A stretch of DNA of 62,276 nucleotides from positions 1 through 62,276 of the forward strand of contig JANNHK010000018.1 in the NCBI GenBank assembly GCA_031404355.1, written 5' to 3'. Under the pieces are notes generated by a model that was not told the origin of the DNA, ran no database searches, and saw nothing but the letters and a program-made list of their open reading frames with translations. A program made the position numbers and the translations under genes. This document shows, piece by piece, positions 2-54,411 of the stretch. How positions within the stretch are numbered: the first letter of the stretch is position 1; each line of letters begins with the position of its first letter. This DNA is from Actinomycetes bacterium (lineage in GTDB: Bacteria > Actinomycetota > Acidimicrobiia > IMCC26256 > PALSA-610).

Positions 2-1087
2 CTCGGAGGCCGCCCGATGTTGCGCTTCATGCTGGATCGGCTCCGCGATCTCGAGTGTGCCGATGTCGTCGTCGCGACGAGCGACCTCGAACGCGACGAC
101 ATCGTCGAGGACGTCGCTCGAATCGCCGGGTTCGAGGTCGCTCGCGGTTCCGAGACCGACGTACTCGCCCGCTTCGTGGGCGCGCTCGACGGGCATCCGG
201 CCGAGCACGTCGTGCGGCTGACCGCGGATTGTCCGCTCGCGGATCCGGCGTTGATCGCGGCGGTGGTCGACCGGCACGTGACGTCGGTCGCCGACTACAC
301 GTCGAACGTGCTCCCGCGCACGTTCCCGAAAGGCCTCGATGTCGAGGTCGTGACGCGCGCGGCTCTCCTCACCGCGCACGCCGAGGCGACCGATTCCGCC
401 GAGCGGGAACACGTCACGCCGTTCCTCTACCGGCGCCCCGAACGGTTCCGGCTCGCGAACCTTCGTCATGGCGACCCGCTCGGGCGGGAACGGTGGACGG
501 TCGACACGGCGGCCGATCTGGAGTTCGTCCGCGAGGTGGTGGCGAGCATGGGACGCGATCGGTTCGCGTGGCAGGACGCGTGGGCCGCGATCGGTCCGCG
601 CGTTGCCGACGAACCGGGGGCGCCGGTCCTGTTCCCCGCGGCCGTCGAGCACGGCGCGTTCGTGCTCGCGTGCCGCAGCGACGAGGACGCGGTGCGGTGG
701 AGTAGGAGCGGCCGGGCCGTCGGCGTCGAGGAGCACCGGGCGTGGTACGGCCGGGCGATCGACGACCCCGGGATCCGGTTGCGGGTGGCGCGTATCGGCG
801 GCGAACTTGTCGGGACGGCCCGAGTCGATGTGCAGGGTGGTGTCGGCACCGTCGGTATCGCGCTCGCCGCCGAGTGCCGGGGCCGGGGCCTGGGCCGGGC
901 GCTACTCACCGCGCTGGTCGAGGACTGCGCCGACGACCCGCAGGTGGTGCGCCTCGACGCGACCGTCCATGCCGAGAACGGGGCGTCGCTCCGGGCGTTC
1001 GCCGCCGCCGGGTTCGTCACCATCGGTGACGACGGCGGCTTCCGAGTGCTGAGCCGCCCCGTGCACCAGCCGATAGAGGTGGCATGA
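2..1087 (+). CDS. Cytidylyltransferase (PseF/SpsF-like) fused to a C-terminal GNAT acetyltransferase (PseH-like); 5' end runs off the window
   Basis: The frame is open to the window edge, and 'GGRPMLRFMLDRL' is internal to this family. 'RLTADCPLADP' is the SpsF/CMP-sugar transferase motif. The C-terminal half has GNAT motif A, 'RGRGLGRALL'. Confidence 0.8.
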   Translation, partial: LGGRPMLRFMLDRLRDLECADVVVATSDLERDDIVEDVARIAGFEVARGSETDVLARFVGALDGHPAEHVVRLTADCPLADPALIAAVVDRHVTSVADYTSNVLPRTFPKGLDVEVVTRAALLTAHAEATDSAEREHVTPFLYRRPERFRLANLRHGDPLGRERWTVDTAADLEFVREVVASMGRDRFAWQDAWAAIGPRVADEPGAPVLFPAAVEHGAFVLACRSDEDAVRWSRSGRAVGVEEHRAWYGRAIDDPGIRLRVARIGGELVGTARVDVQGGVGTVGIALAAECRGRGLGRALLTALVEDCADDPQVVRLDATVHAENGASLRAFAAAGFVTIGDDGGFRVLSRPVHQPIEVA

Positions 1088-1155
1088 CAACCGTGCGGAC
1101 GCAGCGGAGGCCCGCCTGCCGCAGGCCCCTCGACCGGGAGCGGAGGGAGCCATGA
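1084..1155 (+). repeat. MIRU-like intercistronic repeat unit (72 nt) forming a 23-codon mini-ORF
   Basis: The ATGA at 1084-1087 overlaps the upstream stop. The ATGA at 1152-1155 overlaps the downstream start. It shares the blocks ACCGTGCGGACGCAG / GCCGCAGGC / GAGGGAGCCATG with the copies at 36807-36875 and 48821-48958. Confidence 0.6.
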
Positions 1156-4904: not shown

Positions 4905-7900
4905 TCAACGCCCGGCGCGGCGGGTCTTGCGGGCGCGGACGAGGATGATGCCGACGGCGAGGAGTAGCAGACCGACGAGCAACTGGGCGCGGGCATCGGA
5001 ACCGGTGCGGGGCAGGCTCGGACTCGCGGTTGCCTGAGCGGCGGTCGCCGTCGTGGGCGCCGGCGATCCGGCGACGGTCGTCGTCGACCCCTGGACCACG
5101 AGCGGCGCGCCGGTGGTTGTCGTTGCGCCCGCCGCGGCGGCCACCGTGGTCGAGGTCGAGGTCGAACCGGGCGCGGTGGTCGATGTCGATGTCGGCGGCA
5201 CGGTCGTCGTCGATGTGCTTGTGCTCGTTGTCGTCGGCGGAACGGTGGTCGTCGTCGTGCTCGTGCTGGTCGTCGTCTTCGGCACCGTCGTCGTCGACGT
5301 GCTGGTGCTCGTGCTCGTCGTCGTGGGCGGCACCGTCGTGGTCGTCGTGCTCGTACTCGTCGATGTCGTGCTCGACGTCGTGCTGCTCGTCGACGTGGTG
5401 GTGCTCGTCGACGTGGTGGTGCTCGTGCTGGTCGACGTCGTTCCGTTGGGCGTACCGCCGATGATGTCGGTCGGGGTCGAACGCCTCGTCGTTGACGAGG
5501 CCGGGGTCGTCGCCCGTGTGCGACACGCTCGCGCCGTTCACGACGGAGTCGGGTGTGTCCTCGGCGACGATCACCTTGACCGTGACCGTCGCCGTCTCAC
5601 CGACGCCCAGCGGGTTGACGTTCTGGCACTTGACCACGCCGATCAGGTTGCACGCCCACCCGAGTTCGGCGTCCCAGTCGTAGAACTCGAGCCCGGGCGG
5701 CAGCGTGTCGATCACCTCGAAGCCGTCGACGGCTTCCGGCCCGAGGTTTTCGACCGTGATCTCGTACTCGTGCACATTGCCGCGCTCGAAGTCCCCGGTA
5801 TGCGTCTTGGTGATCGCGAGGTCCGCGTTGGCCTTGGGCGGATCGCCGCGCACGGTCAGAGGAGCGGTTGCCGTTCCGCACCCGCCGTCGTCGTCGCACA
5901 CCTCGACCGTGAGCGTGTAGTCGCCGGGTGCCGGATAGACGAAGCCCTCGGCGAGGGCACTGGTGCCGAACCCGAGACCCGAGCGACCGACGGGGAACTC
6001 TTGCGGCCCGGAGCCTTCGCCGTAGTCGACGGTCGCGGTCCACTCGTCGGCGCCGGGGTCGACGAAGCTCACGTCGGGAACGAACACGTAGCCATTCGGG
6101 ATGTCGTACGGCCCGCCCGCTTCGACGACGGGTACCACATTCGTGAACGTCACGGTGTGGTCGTCGGTGTCCTCGAGGTTCTGGCTGTCCCAAACCTTCA
6201 GGCCGACGTTCACGACCGCGTCGTCATTGCGCGTGACCGAGAGTGGGTTCGTGAACGGCGCGTCGGCGTAGTTGCCGTCGCCGTTCAGGTCCCAGTCCCA
6301 GATGCAGCACTGGTTCTCCGGGTCGCTCGACAAGTCCTTGTTGAGCTGCACCGTCGAACCTTCGGGTGCGGTCGTCGGCCCGCTGATCACCGCGGTCGGC
6401 GGCTGCGGCACCGCGACCGTGCGCGAGAGCGTGATCGTCGCCACGTTCGAGTAGCGGTGACCGTCGCCGGCGATGTAATGCACCTTCTTCTCGAACGATC
6501 CCGAGTACTGGACGCCGATGGACACCGGGGTCGTGACATCACGGGAGCCGCCGTCGTCGAGCAGCGTGTACTTGAGTGTGTCGCCTTCGGGGTCGGTCGC
6601 CGACAACGTCACGGGTATCGAGAGCGTGTTGTTCGGTACCACGAGCGTCACGTCGACGGCCGTCGGTGCCTGGTTCGTGTTCGTGGCCAGCGCGAAGTCG
6701 AGCACCGCGTTGTCGTCGGGGTGGATCGTGACGGGTTTCGTCTGGCTGAACAGCAGCTCCGTTTCCGGCCGCAGCGCGGTGACGTTCCACGTGCGGGCAG
6801 TCGCTTCGCCTGCCATCGGTACGGTGGGGAACACGTAGTGCCCGGCGGCGTCGGTGGTCGTGACTGCGCCCCACTCGCCGCCGACCGTGGCGCCCACGAC
6901 CGGCGTACCGTCCGCCGCGCGTGTGACGGTGCCGCTGACGGAGGCGGTGCCCGTGTTCGCGCTACCGAAGTCGAGCGTGATGTTTGCCCCGCAGAAGACG
7001 GTGACGCTGCGTACCGCAGTGATGAAGCCCGACTTCTGCGCGAAGACCTGCACCGCCCGCGGCTGATTCTGGTGCGGGACGATGTTCGGAATCGTGAAGC
7101 GGCCGTCGATGTCGGTGAGCGGATCCGGGAATGGCGTCACGCCGGGGATCGAGATTGACGCGCCCGGAAGCGGCGCACCGGTCGCGGCGTTCAACACCCG
7201 ACCGCGGATGGTCGCGTTCCCGCACTCGCGGAACAAACGAAGGGTGACCTCGACGAGCGCGTTCGGCATGATCGTCACGGTTTTTCCGGCGCCGAGGTAC
7301 CCGGGGAAGTTCGCGGAGACCGTGCGGTTCGTCGGGGCGTTGTTCGCGAGGTTCTGGTGCGGGTAGTCCCTCTTCCCGTCGAGGCCGACGCGCGAATCGG
7401 TCTGTCCCGTCACCGGGTCGGCCAGGCCGACGACGTCGGCCATCGGAAGCGGGTCGCCGGTCACCGCGTCGACCACTGTGACCCTGACGTCGCCGTACAA
7501 CTTGCGCACCATCGTCGCGTCGACGGTGGTCGTCTGGCCGTCGAAGATCTTTGCGCTCTTGCCCGTCGGGATGTACTCGTTCATCGCGGCGGTGCCCGGC
7601 CCGAAACTGACCGAGATGTCGCGGTCGGTCGGCCCGTCAAGGCCGAACACGCCCTCGAAGGAGTACCGGCCGTCGGCATCGGTGAGGCCACTGCCGACGT
7701 AGGTGCCGACGAGGATGTCCTTGAGCGGCTCACCGGTGACCGAGTCGGTGACGCGGCCCTGCACTGTGGCGCGCCGTTCGACCGGCTTGTGGATGACGAC
7801 GTCGGCGATGCCGAGTGAACCGCAGTCGAACAGTTTCCCGGATCCGAACGCGGAGTACTGCACTCCGGCGATGGTGATCGACGCCGACACGCCGAAGCCG

Positions 7901-19578: not shown

Positions 19579-19654
19579 GGCTGTTCAATCGGCCGGAATG
19601 ACGATCCCGTAAGGCCCCGGAGGCGCGCTCAGGCGCCAGACTCAGGCGCCAGAC

Positions 19655-19957
19655 TCAGGCAAGAGTTTCGAACCGGGCCTTGCCGCGGGGTGTGGTGTCC
19701 GGGCGGCGGGGGCGGCCGGCTAGATCCGCCCGAATCCGGTCGCGTTCGGCCGTCAACCGCCGGTCGATCTCCGCGGCGCGGTCGAGGAGTGCGTGCGCGC
19801 GTCCCCGCTGCGGTTCGGGAACGGGGCCGGCGAGTGCCGGTGGTTCGAAACCGGCGGGGACCGATGCGTCGGTACCGAGTTCCAGCACGGCTTCGCAGAG
19901 TTCGAGGCGCGCCTCGAACTCGTCGAGGGCGGCGACCCAGCTCTCGGAAGCGGTCAT
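19655..19957 (-). CDS. Hypothetical 100-aa protein translationally coupled to fliS
   Basis: The ATGA overlap at 19954-19957 links it to the fliS stop. The product 'MTASESWVAALDEFEARLELCEAVLEL...' looks helical. I recognised no family. Confidence 0.5.
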   Translation of the reverse strand: MTASESWVAALDEFEARLELCEAVLELGTDASVPAGFEPPALAGPVPEPQRGRAHALLDRAAEIDRRLTAERDRIRADLAGRPRRPDTTPRGKARFETLA

Positions 19958-20367
19958 CGCCGCGCCGAACTCGCCGAACTCGCCGAACTCGATGTGCCGG
20001 CTACGCCGGCAGCCTCGCTCCACGCGTCGCGCAACGGAGTCACGAGCGCTCGACACGCGGCGACTCGTGCCGGTTCCTTCGAGACGTTCGCGGCGACGAG
20101 TTCTCCGAGCACGTAGAGGTACAGGTCGGCGAGTTGCGGTGCCGCGGACCATGCGGTCACGTCGAGCGCGTCGTGGAGCGCGTGCACGATCTCCTGCGCG
20201 TGCACCAGCGCGTCGTGCGACGCCGCGTGGTCCTTCGCGGTGATCGCGTGCTCGGCCCGGTCGAGATCGAGCAGGAGCCGGTCGTAGAGCGCGACGATCA
20301 CGCGGCCGGGCGACATCGTTTCGAGGGCGTCGGTCCGGTATCGATCGCGAGATGCTGCGCTCGTCAA
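19954..20367 (-). CDS. fliS: Flagellar export chaperone FliS
   Basis: 'SPGRVIVALYDRLLLDLDRAEHAI...AHDALVHAQEIVHALHDALD...LADLYLYVLGELVAANV'. Confidence 0.85.
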   Translation of the reverse strand: MTSAASRDRYRTDALETMSPGRVIVALYDRLLLDLDRAEHAITAKDHAASHDALVHAQEIVHALHDALDVTAWSAAPQLADLYLYVLGELVAANVSKEPARVAACRALVTPLRDAWSEAAGVAGTSSSASSASSARR

Positions 20368-31249: not shown

Positions 31250-31498
31250 GTGCTCGTGCTCACCCGACGAGCGAACCAGAGCATCATGATCGGTCACGAG
31301 ATCGTCGTGACCGTTCTCGAGGTTCGTGGCGACCAGGTCCGGCTGGGAATCAAAGCCCCCCGCTCGATCGACGTGCATCGCGAAGAGATCTTCGCCCAGC
31401 TCCAGCAGGCGAACCGCGACGCCGTCAAGCCCTCCCCGGCCGCGCTCGAGTTGCTCTCTGAGCTGAAGACCCCCGCCTCCGAGGACGACCGCCGCTAA
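31250..31498 (+). CDS. csrA: Carbon storage regulator CsrA (flagellin translational repressor type)
   Basis: GTG at 31250 after GGAGGGAGGA. 'VLVLTRRANQSIMIGHEIVVTVLEVRGDQVRLGIKAPRSIDVHREEI'. Confidence 0.9.
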   Translation: MLVLTRRANQSIMIGHEIVVTVLEVRGDQVRLGIKAPRSIDVHREEIFAQLQQANRDAVKPSPAALELLSELKTPASEDDRR

Positions 31499-31509
31499 CC
31501 GAGGCGCCG

Positions 31510-32646
31510 CTAACCGAGCGCGGCCGGCAGGTCGGCGACAGCCAGTCCGAGCGCTTCGGCCACGGCCGCGTTCGGAACCTTGCCCGCGACGGTGTTCACG
31601 CCCGCAGCCAGCGCCGGGTCGGCCTCGACGGCCTCGCGTACGCCCCGGCTCGCGAGTTCGAGTGCGTACGGCAGGGTGGCGTTCGTGAGCGCGTAGGTCG
31701 ACGTGTTGGGTACCGCGCTCGGCACGTTGCCGACCGCGTACAACAGGACCCCGTGTTCCTCGTACACGGGCGCCGAGTGGGTCGTCTCCCGGATGGCCTC
31801 GACCGTGCCGCCCTGGTCGATGGCACAGTCGACGACGACTGCGCCCTGCTTCATGGTGGCGATCATGTCCTGGGTGACGAGCACCGGCGCCCGCCCACCG
31901 GGGAGGAGTACCGCTCCGATCACGAGGTCGGCGTCGGCGACGGCGCGGGCGACGGCGCCGCGGTTGCTCGCCAGCGTCATGATGCGACCTTTGTGGATCT
32001 GGTCGACCCAGCGCAGCCGATCGAGGTTCTTGTCGAGCAACAGGACCTCGGCCTCCATGCCCTGCGCGATCCACGCCGCGTTCCACCCGACATTGCCCGC
32101 GCCGAGCACCACGACACGCGCGGGGCGCACGCCGGGCGCGCCGCCGAGGAGTACCCCGCGGCCGCCCTGCGCCCGCTCGAGGAAGTGCGCGCCGATCTGC
32201 GACGCCATGCGCCCCGCGACCTCGCTCATCGGCGCGAGCAGGGGAAGCTGACCGTTCGCCAGTTGCACCGTCTCGTACGCGATCCCGGTCGTGCCCGCAT
32301 CGAGGAGGGCGCGGGCGACGTCGGGGTAGGCGGCGAGGTGCAGGTAGGTGAACAGCACGAGGTCGTCGCGGAGGAACCGGAACTCGTCGGCTTGGGGCTC
32401 TTTCACCTTCATGACGATGCCGGCCCGGGCCCACACGTCCTCGGCGCGCGCGACGATCTCGGCACCCGCGGCGCGGTAGTCGTCGTCGCCGATCCCCGAG
32501 TCGGCGCCGGCGTCGTGTTCGATCATCACGTCGACGCCGCGGTGGTTCATTTCCGCGACACCGTCGGGCGTGATCGCGACCCGGTGCTCCTCGGTCTTGG
32601 TCTCGCGCGGGACGCCGACGTTCAGCGTCTTGGCTGTGACAGTCAT
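31510..32646 (-). CDS. ald: Alanine dehydrogenase
   Basis: The start was moved to the ATG at 32646. 'VGVPRETKTEEHRVAITP', 'VVVLGAGNVGWNAA', 'VDCAIDQGG'. Confidence 0.9.
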   Translation of the reverse strand: MTVTAKTLNVGVPRETKTEEHRVAITPDGVAEMNHRGVDVMIEHDAGADSGIGDDDYRAAGAEIVARAEDVWARAGIVMKVKEPQADEFRFLRDDLVLFTYLHLAAYPDVARALLDAGTTGIAYETVQLANGQLPLLAPMSEVAGRMASQIGAHFLERAQGGRGVLLGGAPGVRPARVVVLGAGNVGWNAAWIAQGMEAEVLLLDKNLDRLRWVDQIHKGRIMTLASNRGAVARAVADADLVIGAVLLPGGRAPVLVTQDMIATMKQGAVVVDCAIDQGGTVEAIRETTHSAPVYEEHGVLLYAVGNVPSAVPNTSTYALTNATLPYALELASRGVREAVEADPALAAGVNTVAGKVPNAAVAEALGLAVADLPAALG

Positions 32647-36010: not shown

Positions 36011-36793
36011 ATGACGAGTGTCGAGGAGACGCGTGCGATGCACGGCGTCGACGGCCGGGTGATCGTCGTCACCGGCGCGGGCAAGGGCATCGGCAAGGGC
36101 ATCGCGCACCACCTCGGCAAAGGTGGCGCGCGCATCGTTGTCGCCGAATGGAAACCCGAGCTCATGCAAGAGACCGTGCGCGAACTCGACGCGTTGGGCG
36201 TCGACAACCTCGGTGTCGTGTGCGACATCCAGCAACGCGAACAGATCGACGCGATGGTCGCGCAGACCGTCGCGCGGTTTGGTCGCGTCGACTGCATTGT
36301 GAACAACGCGCAGACCTTCCGCCCGATGGCGTCGGTTGCCGAAGTCAGCGAGCACGACGTCGACGTCTTCTACGGTTCGGGTGTGAAGGGGACACTGTGG
36401 GCGATGCAAGCGGTGTACCCGCACATGCGTGCACAAGGTTGGGGTCGCATCGTCAACTTCGCGTCGTCGATGGGCATCACGGGTGGCCGCGGATTCGCCG
36501 CGTACAACGCGTCGAAGGAAGCGATCCGCGCGCTGACACGCACGGCTGCGCGCGAATGGGGTGCCGACGGCATCGCGGTGAACGCGATCGCACCCGCGGC
36601 CGCGACGCATCACGGCGACGCGGGAAAGCAGAGCGAGGGCTACCGCATCTTCATCGAGAACTGCCCGATGAAACGCCAGGGCGACCCCGAACTCGACATC
36701 GGCTCGGTCGCGTGGTTCCTCTGCAGCGACGCGAGCCGTTACATCACCGGCCACACCCTCATGGCGGATGGTGGTGCATTCATGTGGGCCTAA
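36011..36793 (+). CDS. SDR-family oxidoreductase
   Basis: The start was moved to the ATG at 36011. 'VVTGAGKGIGKG', 'YNASKEAIRALTR'. Confidence 0.85.
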   Translation: MTSVEETRAMHGVDGRVIVVTGAGKGIGKGIAHHLGKGGARIVVAEWKPELMQETVRELDALGVDNLGVVCDIQQREQIDAMVAQTVARFGRVDCIVNNAQTFRPMASVAEVSEHDVDVFYGSGVKGTLWAMQAVYPHMRAQGWGRIVNFASSMGITGGRGFAAYNASKEAIRALTRTAAREWGADGIAVNAIAPAAATHHGDAGKQSEGYRIFIENCPMKRQGDPELDIGSVAWFLCSDASRYITGHTLMADGGAFMWA

Positions 36794-36906
36794 GGACCGT
36801 TGTGTCCATGGCTCCCTCGCGACCCGCGTGTGCGCCTGCGGCGTGGAGGGCGGGCCACTGCGTCCGCACGGTCATGGCGGATGGTGGTGCATTCATGTGG
36901 GCCTGA
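36759..36906 (+). repeat. 35-bp direct duplication of the SDR gene 3' end (36759-36793 and 36872-36906, 1 mismatch) bracketing an inverted MIRU-like unit
   Basis: tcatggcggatggtggtgcattcatgtgggcctaa versus ...cctga. The period is 113 bp. Confidence 0.8.
36807..36875 (-). repeat. MIRU-like repeat unit (69 nt), inverted relative to the flanking genes
   Basis: Minus strand: ATGACCGTGCGGACGCAG-N15-GCCGCAGGC-N15-GAGGGAGCCATG. Confidence 0.6.
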
Positions 36907-48266: not shown

Positions 48267-48824
48267 TTGCGTTGGCCAGCCGCCCCCTTCGCGGGCACTA
48301 GCCTCCGACCGGTGACTGCATCCGAACGCATCCAGCGCCTGCTCGACCCGCAATTCGTCGCGGCGCTCGACCGGCACGACGTCGACGCGTTGCGCGAGCT
48401 GAAGGCCGAGGCCTCCGACATCGAACTCTCGGTGTCGTACTACCGCCGCCTCGCGCAAGCCCGCATGGAAATTCTCGAAGCGGAACGCGCCCGCCGCGAA
48501 CGGGGGGGAGACATTTCCGAACTCGTCGCCGACCTGCCCCGCATCCTCGGGTCGGGTGGCGGGCGCGCCGCACCTGCCGACTCGCGCGTTCCCGACGCCG
48601 ACACGCCGGCGGTCGAGCTGAAGTGGGAGGACGGTCGCGAAGAGCTGGTCGCCGACCTGACGCTCGCGAACCTGCCAACGCTCGACGAAGCTGAACTCGC
48701 CGACACCGTCGCACGCCTCAGCGATTTCGAGCGCGAGCTTTCCGATATTCGCCGCGACCTTCACGGAGTGATCGACGCGCTCGAGCGGGAGATCGCGACG
48801 CGGCAGGTAGCCGGAACCGCGTGA
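48267..48824 (+). CDS. RsiG-like helical protein (candidate c-di-GMP-dependent anti-sigma factor); alternative start GTG 48312
   Basis: Two E(X)3S(X)2R(X)3[Q/H](X)3[D/E] motifs: 'ELSVSYYRRLAQARME' (48423-48470) and 'ERELSDIRRDLHGVID' (48729-48776). Confidence 0.6.
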   Translation: MRWPAAPFAGTSLRPVTASERIQRLLDPQFVAALDRHDVDALRELKAEASDIELSVSYYRRLAQARMEILEAERARRERGGDISELVADLPRILGSGGGRAAPADSRVPDADTPAVELKWEDGREELVADLTLANLPTLDEAELADTVARLSDFERELSDIRRDLHGVIDALEREIATRQVAGTA

Positions 48825-48961
48825 CCGTGCGGACGCAGCCGCAGCCCTTGGACGCCGCAGGCCGCGATGGCTTCGGCGAGGGAGCCATGTGGACCGTGCG
48901 GACGCAGCCGCAGCCCTTGGACGCCGCAGGCCGCGATGGCTGCGGTGAGGGAGCCATGTGA
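48821..48961 (+). repeat. Tandem pair of 69-bp MIRU-like intercistronic repeats forming one 46-codon mini-ORF
   Basis: The units are 48821-48889 and 48890-48958, with 4 mismatches. GTGA overlaps the upstream stop. ATGTGA overlaps the downstream GTG start. Each unit ends in GAGGGAGCCATG. Confidence 0.8.
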
Positions 48962-49332
48962 CTGAGCCGTTCGAGTCGCGGCTGCACGACCTGGGCGAGT
49001 TCATTCGTGACCAACGCCGGAACGCGCGGCTCTCGCTGCGCAAGTTGAGCGAAGCGGCCGGCATCTCGAATCCGTATCTCAGCCAAATCGAGCGCGGGTT
49101 GCGCAAGCCATCGGCCGAGATCCTCCAGTCGATCGCCAAGGGGCTGCGGATCTCGGCGGAGACGCTGTACGTCCGGGCCGGCATCCTCGACGAGCGCCGG
49201 GAGGTCGAAGCCGACTTGGTCGAAGTGGTGCTGGGCGACCCGACCCTGAACGACCGCCAGAAGCAGGTGCTGGTCGAGATCTACCGGTCGTTCCAGGCCG
49301 AAAACCGGGGCCAGGACGCGGAAGCGGGCTGA
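48958..49332 (+). CDS. XRE-family helix-turn-helix transcriptional regulator
   Basis: 'LSLRKLSEAAGISNPYLSQIERGLRKPS'. Confidence 0.85.
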   Translation: MTEPFESRLHDLGEFIRDQRRNARLSLRKLSEAAGISNPYLSQIERGLRKPSAEILQSIAKGLRISAETLYVRAGILDERREVEADLVEVVLGDPTLNDRQKQVLVEIYRSFQAENRGQDAEAG

Positions 49333-53121: not shown

Positions 53122-53949
53122 GTGGTGCCTGACCAGCCGGGATTCGTTTCGTTCCTGTCCGACTATGGACGCGCGGATGAGTTCGTCGGTGTGTGTCACG
53201 CGGTCATGCTCGACATCGCGCCGCATCTGCGGATCGTGGACGTCACGCACGACGTCACCCCGTTCGATGTGCGCGCGGGTGGGCTCGCGTTGGTGCGCGC
53301 GGCCCAGTACCTGCCCGAGGGCATCGTGCTGGCAGTTGTCGACCCGGGCGTGGGCACCGATCGGCGGTGCATCGCAGTGCAGGTCGAGAACGGGTACCTC
53401 GTCGGGCCCGACAACGGCCTGCTCGCGCCCGCGGTCACGATGCTCGGCGGCCCGCAACTCGTCGTCGCGCTGACGAACCCCGAGTACCAGCTCCCCGCGC
53501 CCGGCCCTACGTTCTCGGGCCGCGACGTGATGGCCCCGGCCGTCGCCCACATCGCCAACGGGGTCGAGCTGACCATGCTCGGCGAGGTCGTCGATCCCGC
53601 TTCGCTCGCACCCGGGCTGCTCCCGTTGCCCCAGGAGCTGGAGGGCACGCTCGTCGGCGAGGTGCTCTGGGTGGACCGGTTCGGCAATTGCCAGCTCAAT
53701 ATCGACCCCGACGCGCTCGCCGCGCTCGGCGCCCGGCCCGACGGCCCGATCAAAGTGCGGTTCGGCGAGAAGTCACGGCGGGCCCGGTGGGTGGGCACGT
53801 TCGCCGATGCCAAGGCCTCGGAGTTGGTGCTGATCGTCGACTCGTACGGATTGTGCGCGCTGGCGTTCGACCGGCAGTCGGCGGCGGCCGAGCTGAAGAT
53901 CCGGGCCGGGACCACGATCGTGCTCGTCCCGCCCGGAGACCCGGAATGA
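53122..53949 (+). CDS. SAM hydrolase / SAM-dependent halogenase-family protein (DUF62)
   Basis: 'FLSDYGRADEFVGVCHAVM', 'VVDPGVGTDRR', 'GPDNGLL', 'TFSGRDVMAPA', 'VDRFGN'. Confidence 0.85.
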   Translation: MVPDQPGFVSFLSDYGRADEFVGVCHAVMLDIAPHLRIVDVTHDVTPFDVRAGGLALVRAAQYLPEGIVLAVVDPGVGTDRRCIAVQVENGYLVGPDNGLLAPAVTMLGGPQLVVALTNPEYQLPAPGPTFSGRDVMAPAVAHIANGVELTMLGEVVDPASLAPGLLPLPQELEGTLVGEVLWVDRFGNCQLNIDPDALAALGARPDGPIKVRFGEKSRRARWVGTFADAKASELVLIVDSYGLCALAFDRQSAAAELKIRAGTTIVLVPPGDPE

Positions 53950-54411
53950 GCCGAAACTCATGAGCCGAAACTCATGAGGTGGGGCACCAGCCTGGTGCTG
54001 GTCGCGTTGCTCGGGTTGATCCTGCTCGCCGCGGTGGCCCAGTTCGTCCTGCGCCTGGGCCCGTAACGGGCCCCGAAACGCAACTTGCGTCGCACACCAC
54101 CCTGAAGCGGTTGTGCGACGCAAGAATGTGTACGTGTCTCGGAATTCGGGGCCCCGGCCGCAGTTGCGGACGTTTCTGGGGCGGGCTGGGAGGCTACGTT
54201 GCGAGGGTCCTACCGGTTTCCCGGCAAACACCCCCGCCGCCCACTCCCACGACCGAGACCCCCGATCTTTCCGAGTCGAGACGGCCAGGCCGCTCGCTTG
54301 TATGCCTAACTACGACACCCTCCGCGCGTTTCTTGAGCGACAGTTGTCACTCTAAGTGGGAATAGCCGACCCATACACGGGGCCGGTGATCCGGACGTAC
54401 GCTCCCGGGCC

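Follow-up and report, generated by a model that had tools for sequence, protein, structure and literature searches.

A repeat array that fills an operon junction

What kind of sequence can fill the junction between two codirectional genes and still overlap the stop codon of one and the start codon of the other? The question is raised by an array at positions 48821-48961 of contig JANNHK010000018.1, a 62,276-nucleotide stretch from an uncultured member of the class Acidimicrobiia (the whole stretch is called the window here), where two 69-bp units separate a gene for an RsiG-like protein from an XRE gene. The array is probably a member of a family of short dispersed repeats, not described before, that occurs in an uncultured Acidimicrobiia clade and has the architecture of the mycobacterial interspersed repetitive units (MIRUs). 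Members of this family insert at gene starts, typically within overlapping stop/start RTGA sequences and in the orientation of the gene; the start-codon region is duplicated on either side, and the units amplify into arrays of 2-3 or more.

Tandem Repeats Finder placed the repeat at 48823-48960 (period 69, 2.0 copies, 97% matches, score 262), and direct reading gave unit 1 (C1) at 48821-48889 and unit 2 (C2) at 48890-48958, both on the forward strand and with 4 mismatched positions between them. The two approaches agree with the initial annotation, made from the sequence alone, which had described two head-to-tail units with four mismatches filling the gap between the RsiG-like and XRE genes. 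Both units carry a block 1, ACCGTGCGGACGCAG (48824-48838 in C1, 48893-48907 in C2), and a block 3, GAGGGAGCCATG (48878-48889 and 48947-48958), and both were recovered by nhmmer (E=1.4e-8 and E=3.3e-8, respectively). The naming of the neighbors also held, as the upstream open reading frame (ORF; 48267-48824, forward strand) matches PF22802 at E=3e-20 and the downstream one (48958-49332, forward strand) matches HTH_3 at E=6e-13. Exact-protein look-ups for the XRE protein, the RsiG-like protein, and P0121 found none on record.

The two ends of the array read as had been claimed, and the ORF coordinates agree. GTGA (48821-48824, forward strand) combines the TGA stop of the RsiG-like gene (48822-48824) with the GTG start of a mini-ORF, while ATGTGA (48956-48961, forward strand) combines the ATG of the element, the GTG start of the XRE gene (48958), and the TGA stop of the mini-ORF (48959-48961). 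Between these overlaps the mini-ORF (48821-48961, forward strand) is a single frame of 46 codons open across C1 and C2, the period of 69 being 0 mod 3, which is what had been proposed; its product matched no Pfam family. In unit 2, GAGGGAG (48947-48953, forward strand) has its GAGG core 7 nt 5' of the XRE GTG and would act as a Shine-Dalgarno (SD) sequence, and reading of unit 1 gives an SD-like counterpart at 48878-48884 on the same strand.

A dispersed family in Acidimicrobiia genomes

Related units had been reported at two other places in the window, and a profile search recovered both. Copy A (1084-1155, forward strand; nhmmer E=7.5e-13) is a single unit with ATGAC on either side, preceded by a cytidylyltransferase/GNAT gene whose stop lies in the ATGA at 1084-1087 and followed by an N-acetyl-sugar amidotransferase gene whose start lies in the ATGA at 1152-1155. 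Copy B (36807-36875, reverse strand; nhmmer E=7.9e-8), also a single unit, is antisense to the neighboring SDR and DUF4190 genes. No units beyond C1, C2, A, and B were found by the nhmmer profile in the 62-kb window, which gives a density of 3 sites per 62 kb. Blocks ACCGTGCGGACGCAG and GAGGGAGCCATG each occur four times (1090, 48824, and 48893 on the forward strand and 36872 on the reverse), compared with shuffle expectations, mismatches allowed, of 0.99 and 0.26.

A collection of species-representative genomes was scanned for exact blocks 1 and 3 with the middle left free, and 61 loci with 73 units were retrieved from 18 metagenome-assembled genomes (MAGs), nearly all labeled Acidimicrobiia or Actinomycetota (loci are given below by their L numbers). 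With a nhmmer profile built from a MAFFT alignment of 63 distinct units (cutoff E<1e-3), the count rose to 86 units in 67 arrays; 13 of these arrays hold 2-3 or more units, and several others are truncated at contig ends. The unit is thus present in many copies beyond those of the window. Measured from block 1 to the RTG, it is 57-67 nt long, and the arrays have periods of 51-72 nt. GAGGGAG is invariant in 63/63 aligned units, a set that was chosen by presence of the motif. Of the three conserved blocks proposed in the initial annotation, the outer two are family-wide, whereas the middle one, GCCGCAGGC, is constant among the window units only and differs across the family (for example, GGGCGAAGCCC or GCCGTAGGC).

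As a negative control, the family profile had no match in 202 kb of metagenome loci orthologous to the XRE region or in nine further syntenic loci. No copies of the element were found in a plasmid collection (blastn) or in viral contigs. In the literature, the block sequences did not appear in any relevant context, and we found no description of Acidimicrobiia repeats or of MIRU-like families in other actinobacteria.

Near-identical units occur at separate loci of one genome (L008 and L013; L022, L024, and L025), which points to recent intragenomic spread. The number of units also changes between genomes: the apparently orthologous loci L003, L011, and L027, whose 5' flanks match, carry 2, 2, and 3 units. 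Together with the multiunit arrays (13 of 67), this supports the earlier suggestion that the element forms variable-number tandem repeats.

Several variants deserve separate mention. In the short units (L053, a unit pair on the reverse strand, L016, L017, L045, L051, and L057:1728-1772), block 1 is joined to block 3 with a minimal interior or none; that of L053 consists of the 25-nt GTGCGGACGCAGCGAGGGAGCCGTG and then TGA, and the others measure 45-51 nt. A 3' extension, GCCATGGTGATG, recurs at unit ends in L013, L020, L023, L035, L046, and L049. It creates a stop/start overlap of the form TGATG and may represent an alternative terminus of the element. L050 and L054, apparently orthologous nuoH junctions from two MAGs, have near-identical flanks, identical terminal blocks, and very different interiors (58 versus 61 nt), which suggests that one copy replaced or gene-converted another, or that the interior drifts very rapidly. 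Three loci (L004, L014, and L033, on contigs CAZJSY01...) come from a MAG labeled "uncultured Burkholderiales" (SRP272529_co1_36). Their unit subfamily is common to Acidimicrobiia MAGs (L024, L034, and L043), and the MAG is likely mislabeled or misbinned; otherwise the family would be present across phyla.

Filled and empty sites

Each of the three window sites is empty in relatives, and the existence of both filled and empty sites shows that the element is an insertion. At the RsiG-like/XRE junction (site C), it is absent from 80/80 loci encoding XRE orthologs (62-81% identity). The closest of these that keep the RsiG-like gene have a bare ATGA or TGATG overlap, ...GGGATGAAGTCG... or ...CTGATGCC..., which places the window array within a duplicated RTGA. 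The site reads ...CGCGTGAC-C[unit-unit]CCAT-GTGAC-TGAGCC... in the window, and a prefix/suffix comparison gives a 5-nt duplication, GTGAC; the GTGA that opens the array is the left copy of this duplicated GTGA(C) target, and ATGTGA holds the right copy. The bare RTGA/TGATG overlaps of the empty sites lend weight to the claim that the mini-ORF overlaps the neighboring stop and start. MAG P2IB.169, ~90% identical to the window across >12 kb, is filled at site C with the same 69-nt period, and its contig ends in unit 2. At locus L012 (contig JAWXCJ010000004.1), the contig of the relative stops within unit 2 of the orthologous array, which suggests that arrays break short-read assemblies and are hence undercounted in MAGs.

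Site A is filled in the window (ATGAC-[unit]-ATGAC), while a relative (L147) has a plain ATGA overlap without the element, and P2IB.169 (L148) is empty with a 19-nt gap. In the latter (L148:1478-1504), as in L149 and L150, the empty site holds an 8-codon micro-ORF, ATGAGTAGTCAGTGGGTGTGGCAATGA, with an ATGA overlap at either end, free of the element and with the same junction logic. This micro-ORF may have been left as a footprint or may stem from a separate duplication of the start region.

At site B, the element is absent in the closest relative, P2IB.169 (L142; SDR protein 93% identical). Copy B is bracketed by an exact 33-nt direct duplication of the SDR 3' end, with its left copy at 36759-36791 and its right copy, which contains the GTG start of the DUF4190 gene, at 36872-36904 (both on the forward strand), versus a 12-nt imperfect repeat, ATGTGGGCCTGA..ATGTGGGCATGA, at the empty site (L142:2789-2827). 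The 15 nt between copy B and the left duplication were examined as a donor flank; no second copy was found in the sequences examined, and these 15 nt are homologous to the L142 spacer. A stretch of the SDR gene, CGGCCACACCCTCATGG, resembles the element end CGTCCGCACGGTCATGG and may represent microhomology.

Placement, reading frame, and duplication of gene starts

Flanking genes were called by a GC-phase coding test on either flank. In 38 of the 67 arrays, a codirectional gene has its first possible start 0-12 nt from the terminal RTG, and in ~30 the terminal RTG is itself the gene start. On the upstream side stands either a divergent gene or a codirectional one whose stop precedes the unit by 2-22 nt; with a range of 2-30 nt, such a codirectional stop is present in ~24 arrays. 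The initial view of an intercistronic repeat can be kept in that copies are strongly co-oriented with genes, adjoin their starts, and conserve the outer blocks, with the caveats that ~6 copies are clearly antisense and that ~1/5 are not intercistronic (~13 promoter-proximal copies, described below). The 43 downstream proteins surveyed with Pfam are unrelated (among them birA, nuoD/F/H, ribB, trpA, cydB, fabF, rpiA, phoU, and a tyrosine recombinase), and given this functional diversity, we rejected the hypothesis of a regulon.

The frame that begins with GTG-CGG-ACG-CAG stops between -3 and +10 nt relative to the downstream start in 22/38 arrays, compared with 2/38 and 5/38 for the other frames, and in-frame RTGA sequences are found at -6, -9, -12, or -15. 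Classified by period, 8 arrays are 0 mod 3 and 5 are 2 mod 3, while 1 mod 3 does not occur. The first class has a single continuous mini-ORF, as in the window, while in 4/5 arrays of the second class, ATGA or TGATG junctions chain one mini-ORF per unit. After the 61-nt or 58-nt units of L005, L021, L042, L050, and L054, the downstream genes repeatedly begin with ATGTTTGA, ATGCTTGA, or ATGTTTAA, and the mini-ORF stop therefore falls 5 nt into the gene.

The mini-ORF might be taken to encode a functional micropeptide (V-R-T-Q...), as its frame has no stop within either window unit and the N-terminal codons GTG CGG ACG CAG are invariant. However, the differences among unit lengths (57-67 nt) are not multiples of three, and the peptide is therefore unconserved past VRTQ; the invariance covers wobble positions, which indicates constraint at the nucleotide level; internal stops occur in some copies; and no Pfam family fits the product. 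We consider such a peptide extremely improbable.

Duplication of the gene start was examined with a specific test for the start codon and codon 2, which replaced a generic longest-common-substring test. The 5' flank contains an in-frame RTG followed by the codon-2 dinucleotide of the downstream gene in 12/30 copies, compared with 2.8 +/- 1.4 in shuffled pairings (0/5000 shuffles reached 12), from which we conclude that the start region is duplicated over a variable length. L014, with ATGAAGACC/ATGAAGACC, and L022, with ATGAGCTC/ATGAGCTC, illustrate this.

The ~1/5 of copies that are not intercistronic lie just 3' of a -10-like hexamer, and there the unit is essentially the entire 5' leader. 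A TANNNT hexamer 4-13 nt 5' of the unit is found in 9/21 copies without a codirectional upstream gene, versus 1/25 copies at operon junctions and a background of 0.5%; these nine copies represent four independent loci once apparent orthologs are collapsed by shared flanks. The GTG of the unit sits near the expected transcription start at these promoter-proximal loci, and we hypothesize that the mini-ORF might be translated there without a leader.

Folding of the unit and its rival readings

The predicted folds of whole units are no more stable than those of dinucleotide shuffles (mean z -0.14), with sense similar to antisense; for interiors alone, the mean z is -0.32 (sense) and -0.49 (antisense). 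RNAalifold found no consensus fold on the MAFFT alignment, only an invariant 3-bp hairpin in block 1. On the mean z and the lack of an RNAalifold consensus, a family-wide RNA structure was rejected.

A stem is nevertheless real in part of the family. The initial annotation had suggested that the variable spacers form a compensated stem, and in an alignment-free comparison, at least 8/10 own-arm positions pair in 20/63 copies versus 5.7% with unrelated arms (Wilcoxon p=1e-5). The interior hairpin of unit 2 (48907-48946, forward strand) has its 5' arm, GCCGCAGCC, at 48907-48915, its 3' arm, GGCTGCGGT, at 48938-48946, and an apical GCC-GCA-GGC at 48923-48931; the interior has a z of -2.1, and 9/10 of its own-arm positions pair versus 6.0 with foreign arms. 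The ortholog L012 retains this stem through G.U-compatible changes. The suggestion therefore stands for C1, C2, B, and L012 within a hairpin subfamily that makes up ~1/3 of the family, but not for unit A, in which only 4/10 own-arm positions pair, nor as a consensus fold of all copies. The stem is absent in the large GCGGAGCYCCGC...GGAGCGGGAGCG subfamily, to which unit A belongs.

Two further signals bear on whether the unit could be a structured cis-regulatory RNA leader (a riboswitch, attenuator, or thermometer) that masks the SD and governs a regulon. In 14 sequences, the apical mini-hairpin (GCC-GNA-GGC in alternation with GGGC-GNA-GCCC) switches from C-G to G-C, a pattern that beats shuffles, although we do not count this covariation as proof because a control slid by +1 scores equally well. 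The anti-SD CCCTC is enriched in interiors (15/63 versus 5.4 +/- 2.2 shuffled), and in the minimum-free-energy folds of many units the GAGGG of the SD is paired to a CCCTC-type stretch; sequestration as a general mechanism was rejected, as CCCTC is present in only a quarter of the copies. A regulatory leader is also hard to reconcile with downstream genes that share no function, with absence at all 80 orthologous loci and polymorphism between 90%-identical relatives, with tandem arrays and antisense copies, and with a mean z close to 0 and no consensus fold. Rfam returned no matches for the whole window at the gathering threshold or for 48700-49060 at E<=5. This reading is largely refuted and, in our judgment, very unlikely.

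Another rival reading is a DNA-level hairpin element of the kind of the repetitive extragenic palindromes (REPs) and bacterial interspersed mosaic elements (BIMEs) or of miniature inverted-repeat transposable elements (MITEs) related to IS200/IS605. Here a strand-specific HUH or RAYT-type enzyme would paste a hairpin with its conserved flank beside an RTGA-like tetranucleotide, and the SD, ATG, and mini-ORF would be merely what selection lets survive. A copy-specific compensated stem between constant flanks in 1/3 of the copies, including the recently polymorphic B and C, agrees with this, and the lack of any advantage of sense over antisense folding fits DNA better than RNA; short direct repeats border filled sites, and near-identical units are found at several loci of a single genome. 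On the other hand, 2/3 of the copies, copy A included, are without such a stem, and terminal inverted repeats are lacking (1/12 positions match between the 5' end ACCGTGCGGACG and the reverse complement of the 3' end CATGGCTCCCTC). Copies lie at gene 5' ends in sense orientation and not in extragenic 3' regions, and their flank duplications vary in length. We consider a hairpin element quite unlikely. It concerns mobilization and is compatible with the MIRU-like family that we favor.

A proposed model of translationally transparent insertion

In the MIRU-like reading, translational "transparency" would explain why the insertion is tolerated, and might even make it useful. The left RTGA would still end the upstream gene and start the mini-ORF, at which ribosomes finishing the upstream gene could initiate. 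Translation would then continue across the unit, with any hairpin melted on the way, and end on the downstream start or a few nucleotides from it (RTGA, TGATG, or ATGTGA), where reinitiation would be aided by the SD of the unit (GAGG 5-7 nt upstream). By such read-through and reinitiation, the insertion would preserve translational coupling. Arrays would keep a period of 0 mod 3, with one long mini-ORF, or of 2 mod 3, mostly with mini-ORFs chained by ATGA or TGATG coupling, and in promoter-proximal copies the unit would act as a complete 5' leader. The number of units, together with the hairpin where present, could modulate coupling.

Several points weigh against this reading. The copy number per genome (in the exact-block scan, at least 15 loci in P2IB.169 and at least 11 in MFD05942.bin.2.133) is a lower bound, because the relatives are all MAG fragments, and the block invariance in L001-L061 is circular, because these loci were picked by exact blocks. 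The comparison at site B fits gain or loss of the element alike. The frame statistic (22/38) is partly a by-product of the RTGA targets, one of the control frames being the gene's own frame; in-frame stops lie inside the unit in L001, L009, L049, and L059; and in some arrays the period agrees with none of the overlap schemes (L055, period 65). The lengths of the flank duplications, which vary between 4-5 nt and ~20 or 33 nt, fit no known transposition mechanism, and the generic longest-common-substring test for target-site duplications was not significant (16% versus 10%). Translation of the mini-ORF, use of the SD, and coupling are deduced from sequence features.

The lack of inverted repeats and the variable length of the duplications argue against a classical transposase. 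A more far-reaching proposal, which we put forward tentatively and hold to be on the unlikely side, is that of a mobile "translation-initiation cassette" with start codons as its target. It would duplicate the start region, leave a coupled short ORF (leaderless from its own GTG near promoters), and install a strong SD and ATG, so that overlapped coupled junctions could be converted into SD-driven ones with expression tunable by unit number. The target duplications of variable length and the missing inverted repeats would then point to an unconventional mobilization, for which a single-stranded DNA or RNA intermediate, or microhomology-mediated capture at RTGAC, are candidates.

Comparison with known repeats

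MIRUs are 40-100 bp long, present in 40-50 copies, and intergenic in polycistronic operons; they contain ORFs that overlap adjacent genes, and their filled and empty sites have tetranucleotide direct repeats (PMC3184786, summarizing Supply et al. 1997). The Acidimicrobiia element agrees with them in unit size, in its tens of dispersed copies, and in its location between operon genes in the same orientation. The likeness extends to the small ORFs whose ends overlap the neighboring stop and start, the head-to-tail arrays of variable copy number, the filled and empty sites with short direct repeats (GTGA(C) at C, ATGAC at A), and the shorter variants without an internal segment (L053, L016, and L017). 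The comparison with MIRUs made in the initial annotation is therefore borne out for the architecture. However, the host class differs (uncultured Acidimicrobiia versus Mycobacterium), and an unverified senX3-regX3 MIRU sequence had no nhmmer match and a local alignment score of 13 versus a shuffle mean of 15. Given no detectable similarity to this unverified sequence and hosts of another class, we do not file the element as a MIRU proper, and the likeness is architectural. Unlike in MIRUs, the terminal blocks are extremely conserved around a freely variable interior, the unit ends directly in SD and ATG, that ATG being the gene start in most copies, the flank duplications reach codons 2-3 with variable length, and a subset of copies forms an entire promoter-proximal 5' leader. 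From these sequence features, the element is best described as a new MIRU-like repeat family of uncultured Acidimicrobiia with predicted translational coupling.

REPs, BIMEs, and the RAYT-mobilized REPINs are likewise short, GC-rich, dispersed, sometimes clustered, and able to lie between cistrons, and some copies here have a hairpin. In contrast, REPs are imperfect palindromes, extragenic and mostly 3', with no ORF, SD, or start-codon logic, while 2/3 of the copies described here are without a palindrome and copies adjoin gene starts in sense. Membership was rejected, as own-arm complementarity of at least 8/10 is confined to the 20/63 copies and placement is at gene 5' ends. MITEs share the small size of a nonautonomous insertion, the flanking direct repeats, and the filled/empty polymorphism. 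They were rejected on ends that match as inverted repeats at 1/12 positions and on flank duplications of 4-5 to ~33 nt; a further difference is that the present family forms head-to-tail arrays. The cis-regulatory RNAs of Rfam were also rejected, given no Rfam match, no consensus fold, and diverse downstream genes. Leaderless or upstream short ORFs known from actinobacterial 5' leaders, as in mycobacterial transcriptomes, are locus-specific regulatory ORFs and not a dispersed repeat. The promoter-proximal copies resemble them in a GTG near the expected transcription start, at which leaderless initiation is hypothetical, and in a short ORF that ends on the start of the main gene.

MIRUs have been used in tuberculosis typing for 25 years, while their origin, their movement, and any role in translational coupling are unsettled. 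An independent family with the same architecture, dozens of copies across many genomes, clean filled and empty RTGA sites, start-codon duplications, and frame-constrained arrays suggests that the design of MIRUs has recurred as a way to fit DNA into tightly coupled operon junctions. The family offers comparative material for the insertion mechanism and for the rules of tolerated intercistronic insertions. In practical terms, gene callers and operon predictors will mishandle such junctions, and MAG assemblies break within the arrays, as at L012.

Other repeats in the window

The window also contains other repeats. Positions 5191-5441 hold complex imperfect tandem repeats with periods of 42, 48, 18, and 15 and units of the GTCGTCGTGCTC type; this region is probably a coding repeat of low complexity. 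Four short perfect tandem repeats, none of them related to the family, were found at 19628-19660 (13 nt x2.5, CTCAGGCGCCAGA), 19963-19991 (9 nt x3.2), 31490-31518 (15 nt x1.9), and 53946-53978 (14 nt x2.4, ATGAGCCGAAACTC).

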